Source: Candidatus Eiseniibacteriota bacterium (GTDB lineage: Bacteria; Eisenbacteria; RBG-16-71-46; CAIMUX01; VGJL01). Taken from it: a DNA stretch of 28,101 nucleotides. The stretch lies in assembly GCA_041946735.1 (NCBI GenBank), contig JBHGAY010000043.1:1-28101 (forward strand), given 5' to 3'. Shown here piece after piece: positions 125 through 3,254 of this stretch; the first letter of the stretch is position 1; each line of letters begins with the position of its first letter. The position numbers were made by a program, and so were the translations under genes. The notes beneath the pieces are model-generated. The model was not told where the DNA came from. It ran no database searches and was given only the letters and a program-made list of their open reading frames with translations.

Positions 125-2065
125 ATGAAGCTTTGGCCGCAGCTCGCCCTCGCCTTCGCCCTCGCTCTCCTGCTCATGGCTGCCGCCCCCGCGCAGACGC
201 AGGCGCTTCAGCTCGTCGAGAACGGAGACTTCGAGCAGCCGTTCGACGCCGGGTGGAAGCAGCAGCTGGGGGGACTGGGGAGCATCGATCGCGGAACCAC
301 CTACGAAGCCGATCCCGACTACGAGGCGCACGTCTCGAAGATGGAGACCACCGGATCGAACCGCCTCTACCAGGTCATCCCGATTCCCTCGCTCGACGTC
401 CGCCTCTCGTTCCGGGCGCGGATGAATGTCCTCGCCGGCAGCGAGGCATGGGCCGCCGCGATGATCGGAATCGTCTATCTCGATGCCGAAGGCTCCATCC
501 TCGGCGAGACGCGCGCCCTCGCTCGCGCCGGCGCCTGCCCCTTCACCGACCGGCCCGACCTCCATCTGATCGCGGCGCCGGGCGACGATGCCTGGCACGA
601 GACGGTCGTTCAGCTTTCCGACGAGATGGCCTGGCTGCCCGCCGTCGATCCGATGCAGATCCGCTCGGTCCGGCTGCAGATCTGGGCCACGACGGTCGGC
701 TGCTGAGGAGAGTCTCCGGTGGCGGAGGTCTCCGCCGACGACGTGCGACTCGACTACGACTCCGACGAACCAGCGCTGCAGCCGATCGCGACCGCCTTCG
801 ACGACAACCTGGGAAACGGCGACGGCCGATGGGACGCCGGCGAGACGGCCGGCGTGCTACTGACCTTGAAGAACTTCGGAAGCGACGCCTCCGGCGTGGA
901 GGCGACCTTGGCGTGCAGCGATCCGCTCGTCACGATCCTCGACGGCGCCGCTTCCTTCGGGGACATCCCGCGCGGCGGGACGGCCGGCGGGACGGCGCCG
1001 AGCTTCACCGTCCGCGCCTCTCCGCACGCTCCCGCCGGTCACGTGGCCTCGTGCACGCTGCGCATCGTGCACGACTCGGGAGAATCGGTCTCGGCTCTCG
1101 GCTTGACGATCGGACGCCACGCCGTCTTCGTCTGGGATCCGACGTTCCTGCAGTCGACCGGGCGCGCGCTCCGGGAGATCCTGCCCTCCCTCGGCACGCC
1201 GTTCACGTTCAGCGATCTGCTGCCGCCGAATCTCGAGGATCACACGCTCCTCTTCGCGCTGCTCGGCGTCTACCCCGACAACTTCGTCGTCCGGCAGGTG
1301 TCGAGCGAGGCGACCGCGATCGAGCCGTTCTTCGGCGACGGCCATGGCGTCTACCTGGAAGGCGGGGACGTCTGGTACTTCGATCCGATCAGTATGAGCG
1401 GCTACCCGTTCGCAGCGCGCTTCGGGCTGCAGGCCGTCGAGGACGGCATGGCCGACGCCGGGATGGTGATCGGCGAGACGGGCCGGTTCACCGAAGGGAT
1501 GGCGTTCTCCTATGTGGGGGACAACGCGTATCTCGACCGCCTGCGGCCGCTCACCGCAAGCTTCACGATCCTGTCGAACGTCGCGCCCGTCTACGTCTGC
1601 GGCGTCGCTCACGACGGCGGAGACTACCGGACGGTCGGCGCGTCGATCGAGCTGGGCGGCCTCGCCGACGACGAGCCGCCGTCGACGAAGGCGGACCTGA
1701 CCGCGGCGATCCTGGTCTTCCTTCGCAACCGTGAGCCGCAGTCCGGCGCGGGCGACGCGGGCTCCGCCTCGCTCGACTTCCTCGGCCTGCCGCGCCCGAA
1801 CCCGGCGGCGCGCCGCACGACGATCTCCTATTCCCTCTCGGAGTCGAAGCGCGTCTCGATCTCGCTCGTCGACGCCGCCGGGCGGCGAGTGGCGATGGTG
1901 GTCGACGGCGCGCAGGAGGCGGGAGCGCACGTCGCGACGATCGACACCGGCCGGCTGCCGGCCGGCGTGTACTTCCTGCGATCGAACCTTGGCGAGGGTG
2001 CGGGAGCAGGCGCGGGCCGAGGCGAAGGCGCGGGAGGACAGCGAAAGCTCATCGTGACGCGGTAG
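125..2065 (+). CDS. Secreted multidomain protein, predicted selenoprotein (Sec at TGA 704-706): signal peptide, CBM-like jelly-roll, Ig-like domain, alpha/beta domain, T9SS-A/FlgD-like CTD
   Basis: SD (GAGGAGG) precedes ATG125, followed by signal peptide MKLWPQLALAFALALLLMAAAPAQTQA. ORFs 125-706 and 719-2065 are in the same frame, separated by one TGA plus 4 sense codons. The jelly-roll-like domain opens with LVENGDFE and its expected closing strand (AEVSADDVRL) lies after the TGA. A SECIS-like hairpin follows the TGA. The C-terminus reads PRPNP...ISYSL...LPAGVYFLR...KLIVTR. Confidence 0.75.
718..739 (+). promoter_or_regulatory. Putative bacterial SECIS element
   Basis: TGA, 11 nt, then GGT-GGCGG-AGGTCT-CCGCC-GAC. 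Stem 721-725/732-736 is capped by AGGUCU, the same apex as the E. coli fdhF SECIS, at a similar distance from the UGA. Confidence 0.75.
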
Positions 2066-2099
2066 CGGCAGGCCGAGCCGCCGCCTCCGCGTCCCGAAC

Positions 2100-2152
2100 G
2101 ATCCTTCAGGATCTTCTGGATCCTTTCTTCAGGATCCTTCCGGATGATCTTC
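2100..2152. repeat. Imperfect GATC(C)TTC direct repeats (5 GATC sites)
   Basis: GATCCTTCAG-GATCTTCTG-GATCCTTTCTTCAG-GATCCTTCCG-GATGATCTTC, with GATC at 2100, 2110, 2119, 2133 and 2146. Confidence 0.75.
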
Positions 2153-2159
2153 ATATGGG

Positions 2160-2203
2160 AACCGGGGCCGCCGAGAAATGCGTTCGGCGGCCCCGGTTTT
2201 ATT
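2160..2203 (+). terminator. Intrinsic (rho-independent) terminator
   Basis: Perfect 15-bp stem AACCGGGGCCGCCGA (2160-2174) / TCGGCGGCCCCGGTT (2184-2198) with a 9-nt loop, running into TTTTATT. Confidence 0.8.
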
Positions 2204-2306
2204 GACTTCCCTGGGGGCCCGATGCCAACCTTCGACGTCGCGCCCGAACCGATCGTCGCGCATTCCGTGTGGCAGGGCTCGACGGCGTTTTCGAGGAGAG
2301 GCTCTC

Positions 2307-3254
2307 ATGGACCGGTCCGACCCGCGCCCACCCGAGCCCGAGGAGATCGACTCGGTCGATTCCTATCGGCAGGTGCTCGATCATCTCGACGAAGGGGTCT
2401 ACATGGTCGCCCCGGATCGCCGGATCGTCTACTGGAACGCGGGCGCCGAGCGGATCACCGGATACGCGCGGGCGGCGGTCCTCGGACGCTCCTGCAAGGA
2501 CGACACCCTCCGGGTGCACGTGGACGAGCGCGGCGATCCTTTGTGCCTCGCGGGCGCCTGCCCGATCGACGAGGCGATGAGGGGCGGCGCGCCGGCGGAG
2601 CAGACGCTCTACATGCGGCACGCCGACGGCCATCGCATCCCGGTGCGCGTCCGCGCGGCGCCGGTGTTCTCTCCCTCCGGCGGGATCGTGGGCGCGGTGG
2701 AGATCTTCACAGACAGCACCACGATCCTCGCCGCGAACCGGCGCCTCGACGAGCTGAACCAGCAGGCGTTCCTCGATCCCGTGACCGGCGTGGGCAATCG
2801 CCGCTACGTCGAGATGGAGATGCGCGCGATCCTCGAGGCGCACGCGCGCCACGCGATCCCGTGCGGATTCCTCTTCCTCGACATCGACCACTTCAAGCGG
2901 ATCAACGACTCCCACGGCCACGCGGTCGGCGACGGGGTGCTGCGCATGGTGGCGACGACCGTTCGCGAGGGACTGCGCGCGGGCGATTCGCTGGGACGAT
3001 GGGGGGGCGACGAGTTCCTCGTCATCCTCTCGCCGATCGGACCGAGCAGCTTGCAGGCGACCGCCGAGAAGCTGCGCGCCCTCGTCGAAGCCTCGTCGAT
3101 CAAGGAGAGGGGCAAGCCGATCCGCGTGACGATCTCGATCGGCGGGACGGCCGCGCGCGCCGGCGACACGCCGGAGATGGTGCAGGAGCGCGCCGACGTC
3201 CTGCTCTACCAGAGCAAGCAGTCGGGCCGCAACCGCGTGACGCTCGACGCCTGA
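2307..3254 (+). CDS. PAS-GGDEF diguanylate cyclase
   Basis: SD GAGGAG precedes ATG2307. PAS domain (YWNAGAERITGY). DPVTGVGNRR, DIDHFKRINDSHGHAVGD, an intact GGDEF motif and the RxxD I-site (RAGD) five residues upstream of it. Confidence 0.93.
   Translation: MDRSDPRPPEPEEIDSVDSYRQVLDHLDEGVYMVAPDRRIVYWNAGAERITGYARAAVLGRSCKDDTLRVHVDERGDPLCLAGACPIDEAMRGGAPAEQTLYMRHADGHRIPVRVRAAPVFSPSGGIVGAVEIFTDSTTILAANRRLDELNQQAFLDPVTGVGNRRYVEMEMRAILEAHARHAIPCGFLFLDIDHFKRINDSHGHAVGDGVLRMVATTVREGLRAGDSLGRWGGDEFLVILSPIGPSSLQATAEKLRALVEASSIKERGKPIRVTISIGGTAARAGDTPEMVQERADVLLYQSKQSGRNRVTLDA

Follow-up and report, generated by a model that had tools for sequence, protein, structure and literature searches.

The window, positions 1 to 28,101 of contig JBHGAY010000043.1 from a Candidatus Eiseniibacteriota bacterium, raises a question near its start: is the TGA at 704-706, which separates two adjoining open reading frames (ORFs), a true stop, or is it a selenocysteine (Sec) codon recoded by the hairpin that follows it? 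A sequence-only reading had proposed that this hairpin is a selenocysteine insertion sequence (SECIS) with the apex of the E. coli fdhF element. We find it very probable that the hairpin at 720-737 is a genuine bacterial SECIS (bSECIS) and that UGA 704-706 is a Sec codon. The conservation and covariation of the hairpin, the hairpins of the genome's own Sec genes, the complete Sec machinery and the fdhF apex all favour the proposal.

Automatic gene calls cut the locus into 125-706 and 719-2065, and the public protein sets contain just these two halves, P0004 and P0003. TGA 704-706 is the sole in-frame interruption between ATG 125 and TAG 2063-2065, and the codon in front of it in this frame (125-2065) is TGC 701-703, just as the sequence-only reading had described an in-frame Cys-TGA. 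The composition along 125-2065 shows GC at third codon positions (GC3) steady at 0.85-0.88 across the TGA in the same frame. The signal peptide is confined to the part upstream of the TGA, and the sorting domain of the type IX secretion system (T9SS) is confined to the downstream part. Because frame and GC3 are continuous, the leader is found only upstream, the T9SS domain only downstream and the modelled fold spans the TGA, the two ORFs are a single gene for one protein of 646 residues.

Is the TGA kept in the homologs? It was counted in six-frame profile searches that read through stops and are blind to RNA. The TGA was kept in 24/24 site-spanning matches from 40 related genomes, in 29/29 site-spanning matches from the 206 genomes of the window's phylum (13 with the family), in 10/10 full-length matches from four genomes of other phyla, and in 79 of the 82 matches from a 151-genome sample of another phylum (36 with the family). 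Two of the three exceptions in this last sample are fragments ending short of the site. The residue before Sec across the wider family of 77 distinct members is mostly Cys (55), otherwise Gly (16), Ser (3), Thr (2) or Tyr (1). An HMMER search found five short homologs (P0005, P0017, P0022, P0028 and P0040) which start exactly at the AEVSADDV strand; these proteins come from gene calls cut short by the corresponding TGA. The exact pattern TGY-TGA-GG-N13-GCGRAGGTCTYCGCSGA matches 86 loci with local GC of 0.36-0.74, in metagenome-assembled genomes (MAGs) titled Eisenbacteria, WOR-3, Stahlbacteria, Krumholzibacteriota, Cloacimonadota and Thermoanaerobaculales, and in one titled Desulfuromonadaceae. 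Two regular-expression matches, in L026 and L043, had no family context and were dropped as chance. A word-index search with the full protein gave the sorting domain as its sole match.

The hairpin itself was read exactly: TGA 704-706 is followed by GGAGAGTCTCC (707-717), GGT, GGCGG (721-725), AGGTCT (726-731), CCGCC (732-736) and GAC. The E. coli fdhF sequence given for comparison is also right (NC_000913.3: TGA-CACGGCCCATC-GGTTGC-AGGTCT-GCACC). All six apex bases AGGTCT are the same in both, and the apex begins 20 nt past the A of the UGA in the window, compared with 18 nt in fdhF. The extent of the stem had to be corrected: the proposed GGCGG/CCGCC pairs stand, and the helix is longer, with U720-G737 and A726-U731 paired too. 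It has seven contiguous pairs (720-726/731-737) and a free energy of -10.6 kcal/mol. The A726-U731 pair becomes G-C in some relatives, so the loop proper is a GGUC tetraloop. The small palindrome at 707-717 is conserved in no relative.

These properties can be compared with the consensus bSECIS as given in PMC13188914: an apical loop of 3-9 nt on an upper stem of 4-16 bp, a G at the first or second loop position, in most cases with G or U next, 16-37 nt from UGA to the apical loop, and a free energy <= -7.5 kcal/mol. The element in the window falls within every one of these limits: it has the in-frame UGA directly upstream, a loop of 4 nt (6 nt for AGGUCU) on a 7-bp stem, G727, G728 and U729 in the loop, 20 nt from UGA to loop (707-726), and the energy given above.

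Several observations weigh against a recoded TGA, and they are collected here. Folding of 695-770 gives z = -1.24 against shuffles, which is not unusual for DNA of 68% GC, and the minimum free energy fold uses a competing pairing, so that the proposed hairpin appears only in the centroid. The stem carries an A·C mismatch in one member of the family, L213. The family-bearing genome G016, which is 92% complete, shows no selB at E<=1e-50. We found no homolog with Cys exactly at the Sec position in a search of limited depth; such a Cys-for-Sec homolog is a usual supporting criterion in selenoprotein discovery. Lastly, GGAG at 707-710 sits 8 nt before GTG 719, and the two resemble a ribosome-binding site with its start codon.

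The last point is the basis for a reading with two genes, in which translation really ends at TGA 704, GGAG is a Shine-Dalgarno sequence for a second gene starting at GTG 719, and the hairpin has some other use, for instance in translational coupling or mRNA stability. The gene callers agree with it in giving P0004 and P0003, and they start many homologs just past the TGA. However, neither the Shine-Dalgarno-like element nor the start codon is conserved, and the four codons after GGN vary freely. The downstream product would be a T9SS domain without a signal peptide, and the upstream product would be a β-sandwich without its last strand. The frame is moreover continuous across the TGA in all 77 distinct members. 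Two genes are therefore very unlikely here.

How far can the hairpin of one sequence carry the case? The sequence-only reading had judged the match in apex and position unlikely to be chance. N-GGTC-N hairpins of 5 bp or more number 584 in the genome, and the published bSECIS model, in our own implementation, is passed by 188 of the 1086 genuine TGA stops of the genome. A stricter rule (>=5 bp, <=-10 kcal/mol and GGU in the loop) is passed by 2/1086, and this rule was a post hoc choice. Given the first two counts and the z value, the argument from one sequence is weak. The hairpin alone is hardly significant, and the case depends on conservation and covariation. The abundance of such hairpins and the ordinary z value also speak for a third reading, a pseudogene or an assembly error whose hairpin is only a by-product of the peptide AEVSADD in GC-rich DNA; this peptide is indeed a conserved β-strand.

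The exact pattern fixes most of the stem bases, so covariation was recounted on members found by protein profile only. The GGUC hairpin is present in 77/77 of these distinct members, with at least 6 bp in 76 of them, and loop G-G-U is invariant (77/77). The first G of the loop lies at +20 (17 members), +23 (56), +26 (3) or +29 (1), always in codon phase, and the spacing from UGA to loop is thus 17, 20, 23 or 26 nt. Four of the six stem pairs covary (Table 1), two of them solely at synonymous third positions. Pairs 3 and 6, numbered from the loop outward, connect third codon positions (for example GCG/TCC changes to GCA/TTT or GCA/TCT). Their changes are synonymous, and therefore protein selection cannot account for them. 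Pairs 1 and 2 alter residues only in the matched sets E-V-S, E-V-F, K-V-F and R-V-L.

Other counts are consistent with this. In alignment A1 (25 members) the five-pair helix is paired in 100% of cells, two pairs show double changes, and the covariation score is reached by 0/500 shuffles. The permitted non-pair A·C occurs 0 times in 83 distinct pattern matches, compared with about 15.6 expected from marginal frequencies. A maximum likelihood tree was built from upstream residues only, leaving out 6 of 87 rows that had under 120 such residues. It requires at least 10 state changes in the inner pair and at least 3 in the outer one. The hairpin is present in loci of 36-74% GC. So the hairpin is kept and covaries in homologs; the sequence-only reading had named the opposite outcome as a refutation. 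For a pseudogene or a by-product of the peptide, these results are hard to accommodate: the same TGA occurs in dozens of genomes of several phyla, the synonymous third positions are invariant or change in compensating pairs, the residue pairs are only E/S, E/F, K/F and R/L and never K/S, and the hairpin is present even in genomes of 36-45% GC. We consider this reading close to excluded.

Table 1. Positions of the features of the selenoprotein locus in the window, and composition of the SECIS stem pairs in the family (pairs numbered from the loop outward)
Feature	Position	Strand	Remarks
Selenoprotein gene, 646 residues, Sec = residue 194	125..2065	+	ATG 125, stop TAG 2063-2065; frame shared by both sides of the TGA
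Signal peptide (MKLWPQLALAFALALLLMAAAPAQTQA)	125..205	+	Hydrophobic core and AQA-type end, by eye; homologs have equivalent leaders
Galactose-binding/CBM-like β-sandwich holding the Sec codon	206..796	+	AlphaFold2 pLDDT 93.6; Foldseek
Cys138 codon (C-P-W/F motif)	536..538	+	Invariant in 25/25 aligned members; retained in Sec-less relatives
Cys193 codon TGC, immediately 5' of the Sec codon	701..703	+	Invariant in the 25-member subfamily
UGA codon, residue 194, read as selenocysteine	704..706	+	Homolog conservation; tRNA-Sec sole UGA reader
SECIS hairpin	720..737	+	5' arm 720-726, loop GGUC 727-730, 3' arm 731-737; encodes V-A-E-V-S-A-D
α/β domain, class-I glutamine-amidotransferase (GATase1)/ThuA-like fold	1091..1768	+	Residues 323-548; AlphaFold2 pLDDT 91.5
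T9SS type A C-terminal sorting domain	1796..1993	+	Residues 558-623; PF18962 31.3 bits (cut-off 27), TIGR04183 30.5 bits (cut-off 23)
Stem pair 1			AU 72, GC 5 (77 profile-only members)
Stem pair 2			GC 38, AU 32, GU 7 (77 profile-only members)
Stem pair 3			GC 74, AU 3 (77 profile-only members)
Stem pair 4			CG 77 (77 profile-only members)
Stem pair 5			GC 76, A·C mismatch 1 (77 profile-only members)
Stem pair 6			GC 66 (one beyond the A·C mismatch), CG 8, UG 1, GU 2 (77 profile-only members)

The hairpin also leaves its mark on the protein. In the 77 members G|GUC always consists of the final base of an E/K/R codon and a Val codon. Because the SECIS lies within the coding sequence, it fixes the peptide A-(E/K/R)-V-(S/F/L)-A, with residue changes only in combinations that preserve base pairs, so that RNA pairing here drives a covariation of amino acids. 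The family would be a clean natural case of mRNA structure dictating a protein motif.

Reading of UGA as Sec requires a machinery, and the genome has it complete (selA, selB, selC and selD). The tRNA-Sec scored 72 bits against RF01852 and has the anticodon UCA according to ARAGORN. The scores were 349 bits for selB, 479 bits for selA and 388 bits for selD, which has its own in-frame TGA and is of the Sec type. selB is near-universal in the phylum, being found in 191/206 genomes and in 12/13 of those that bear the family (a tally that includes genome G072). Other selenoprotein genes, with the family domain spanning the TGA, are those for TIGR01926 (CxxU), TIGR02187 (UxxC) and a Trx-like UxxC protein. 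A comparison with the hairpins of the genome's own Sec genes had been recommended, and it turned out favourably: in selD, in the TIGR01926 gene and in two more candidates the loop GG stands at +23/+24, counted from the U of UGA, which is also its place in the window's hairpin.

The UGA might also be read through without selenocysteine, by a near-cognate tRNA (Trp or Cys) stimulated by the hairpin, or because UGA is a sense codon. Computation does not decide which residue is inserted, and one public gene call, P0153, has W at the Sec position. The simplest explanation of this W is that the gene caller used a translation table with TGA=Trp. Against such read-through, TGA terminates 1086 long coding ORFs of the genome, and tRNA-Sec, with the only UCA anticodon, is the sole UGA reader among the 47 tRNAs of the assembly, the anticodon of tRNA-Trp being CCA. 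The loop is of the SelB-type G-G-U and stands at a SelB-type distance, as in the genome's selD and in E. coli fdhF. We regard read-through without selenocysteine as highly improbable.

Canonical SelB/SECIS recoding of UGA 704 to Sec194 is then the most likely mechanism to judge from these sequences. The GGUC-capped hairpin, about 14 nt past UGA 704-706, would bind SelB·GTP·Sec-tRNA(Sec), and the hairpin-bound complex would deliver selenocysteine at the UGA, so that termination is avoided. The read-through would yield the 646-residue protein with Sec194 in the last β-hairpin loop (motif C-U-G) of the β-sandwich, which resembles carbohydrate-binding modules (CBM).

The element is similar to the SECIS of E. 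coli fdhF in several respects. Both are found within a coding region, directly 3' of an in-frame UGA and with the loop at a similar distance from it, and both have the AGGUCU apex, in which A-U closes a GGUC loop, on a short upper stem rich in G+C. In the window the loop is 2 nt farther from the UGA, and the host protein is unrelated. The upper stem here is a perfect one of 5-7 bp, whereas fdhF has an unpaired U (GGUUGC/GCACC) which is without counterpart, the stem being fully paired in all members of the family but one. A conserved lower stem that extends to the UGA is also lacking. E. coli SelB contacts the bulged U and loop G23/U24 of the fdhF SECIS. Compared with the general bSECIS model, the family element is far more uniform, its loop being invariantly GGUC and its position locked to codon phase. 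Such an unusually uniform SECIS with the fdhF apex may be directly testable in E. coli.

The protein has the following order of domains: signal peptide, CBM-like β-sandwich, an uncharacterised β-rich segment, GATase1/ThuA-like domain and T9SS sorting domain. The β-sandwich was modelled with AlphaFold2 as residues 28-224, with U read as C and a 25-sequence alignment. In this single β-sandwich, the last two strands (154-164 and 172-184, model numbering) are joined by a loop that holds C166-U167, and the fold thus extends across the UGA. Foldseek matched this domain with CBM11/16/61, the sugar-binding domain of Fbs1 and MAM (E about 1e-6), and the α/β domain with the GH42 trimerisation domain, ThuA-like proteins and GATase1 (E 1e-5 to 1e-7). 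Both parts of a T9SS cargo were found, the sorting domain and the signal peptide, the latter recognised by eye only. Because the two occur in one protein, it is probably exported and displayed on the cell surface.

In the β-sandwich of the 25 aligned members, N33, E37, D205 and Cys138 are invariant, His147 is near-invariant, and the motif is Cys193-Sec194-Gly. By analogy, N33, E37 and D205 may form something like a structural Ca site. Cys138 is a candidate partner of the Cys-Sec pair. Our guess, with low confidence, is that the Cys138/Cys193/Sec194 site could be a surface selenenylsulfide redox centre or a centre binding soft metal or chalcogen.

An adjacent Cys-Sec is known elsewhere. Mammalian thioredoxin reductase has C-terminal Gly-Cys-Sec-Gly, and by comparison the pair here, in the context G/D-C-U-G, hints at either a vicinal selenenylsulfide or a pair of soft-metal ligands. 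Adjacent Cys and Sec are also shared with the 'CU'-motif selenoproteins, which in Table 1 of PMC13188914 include HgcA, SaoL, SaoC, MbdU, KCU-star and the Csac_0668 family. Unlike these, the present family has the motif in a loop of an extracellular β-sandwich, and the Cys is missing from a sizeable subfamily, which has G/S-U-G. The sequences of the two groups are unrelated, and NCBIfam, which has models for those families, gives no match to the N-terminal domain.

This subfamily (L205, L206, L210, L211, L214-L220 and L222-L224), mostly from genomes on the WOR-3 side, has Gly, Ser or Thr before Sec in the motif S-G-U-G-T-P-W/V-A-E-V-S-A. It has one codon fewer between UGA and hairpin, with GGUC at +20. 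In two Sec-less relatives that serve as negative controls, L221 (G249:C3:200600-202400) and P0155, the last loop is remodelled and other residues replace A-E-V-S-A. Both retain the Cys equivalent to Cys138, in C-P-W/C-S-N. The DNA of L221 has no GGUC hairpin at the corresponding site; P0155 was examined as protein only.

The family is patchy in its distribution. It was found in 0/5 of the window's own family-level relatives (G001-G005) compared with 10/15 in the sister family, whose genomes have 1-5 copies each, and the window copy groups with those copies on the tree. This patchy occurrence could reflect transfer or loss.

Has the family been described before? The N-terminal domain (residues 1-215) matches no Pfam or NCBIfam (release 20.0) model, and no Rfam family matches 600-900. 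No such family is present in the consulted part of Table 1 of PMC13188914, a 2026 review which states 119 prokaryotic selenoprotein families, and term searches in the accessible parts of the deep-Sep and BSepDB papers (PMC12013277, PMC13326102) gave no secreted or T9SS family. Literature searches gave nothing relevant on secreted or T9SS selenoproteins, or on selenoproteins of Eisenbacteria or WOR-3. The selenoprotein family appears to be uncatalogued and unusual in its extracellular location. To our knowledge, bacterial selenoproteins outside the cytoplasm are hardly known, and most of the known ones are cytoplasmic redox enzymes.

A wider interpretation is that this is an uncatalogued family of extracellular, T9SS-displayed selenoproteins in at least six candidate or little-studied phyla, in which Sec, Cys138, His147 and often Cys193 make a new surface selenium centre. 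We put it forward only tentatively and think it somewhat doubtful as a whole. If true, Sec would lie in an exposed loop of a CBM-like domain, as a redox selenenylsulfide or a soft-metal/chalcogen site, and Sec chemistry would take place outside the cytoplasm. A large exported selenoprotein family in MAGs of WOR-3, Stahlbacteria, Eisenbacteria, Cloacimonadota, Krumholzibacteriota and Thermoanaerobaculales would imply extracellular selenium chemistry in uncultured anaerobes. There is also a consequence for annotation. Public calls split every member into a "hypothetical protein" of about 190 residues and a leaderless T9SS cargo (P0003-P0005, P0017, P0022, P0028 and P0040 are among these split calls), and UGA read as Sec repairs all recovered members (86 pattern loci; 77 distinct profile members).

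One known selenoprotein is of a similar kind. The Omp28-related selenoprotein (NF045500, 'hypothetical protein GOS_C') is also an exported cell-envelope selenoprotein of the same kinds of bacteria; it differs in that its redox motif, UxxC, lies in a thioredoxin-like region, and the CBM-like domain is no homolog of it. The genome has Omp28-type candidates with T9SS-type tails, L172 and L173, the latter with only 47.5 bits compared with a cut-off of 200. Together with L174 and L178 (in order L172, L173, L174, L178: G000:C18:15226-16263, C24:3-2015, C5:129091-130875, C45:126673-128994), they have one in-frame TGA each, coding-like composition on both sides of it and C-termini of the T9SS/FlgD-Ig type. 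The motifs in this set are G-U-PPC and W-U-GYC (a weak match to Omp28_seleno NF045500), T-U-PYC where a β-helix protein begins, and GCVG-U-GHG within a β-propeller protein. It may be that several selenoproteins are exported by this organism.

Two more loci, L179 and L180 (G000:C45:59552-60331 and C18:56653-57522), are small secreted-looking ORFs in which an in-frame TGA has a GGUC hairpin behind it, at +23 or +26. One of them is a Cys-rich protein with CCFxDGSC repeats, in which U replaces a repeat Cys. Neither belongs to a Pfam or NCBIfam family. A screen for in-frame TGA by GC3 only gave 953 candidates, mostly spurious, which were reduced to 47 when criteria for GC at the first and second codon positions (GC1/GC2) were applied. 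Candidate C54 (L177) was rejected as a selenoprotein: it looks like two genes, with a methyltransferase domain that ends before the TGA and a weak hairpin.

Directly past the stop of the selenoprotein gene, short direct repeats with CAGGATC(C)TT-like units were seen by eye (window 2098-2200). After these comes an inverted repeat rich in G+C, at about 2162-2196, which ends in TTTT and, also by eye, looks like an intrinsic terminator. The translation of the next ORF (2178-3254, + strand) shows by eye a GGDEF motif (RWGGDEFLVIL), and this ORF probably encodes a diguanylate cyclase that has its sensor region at the N-terminus.

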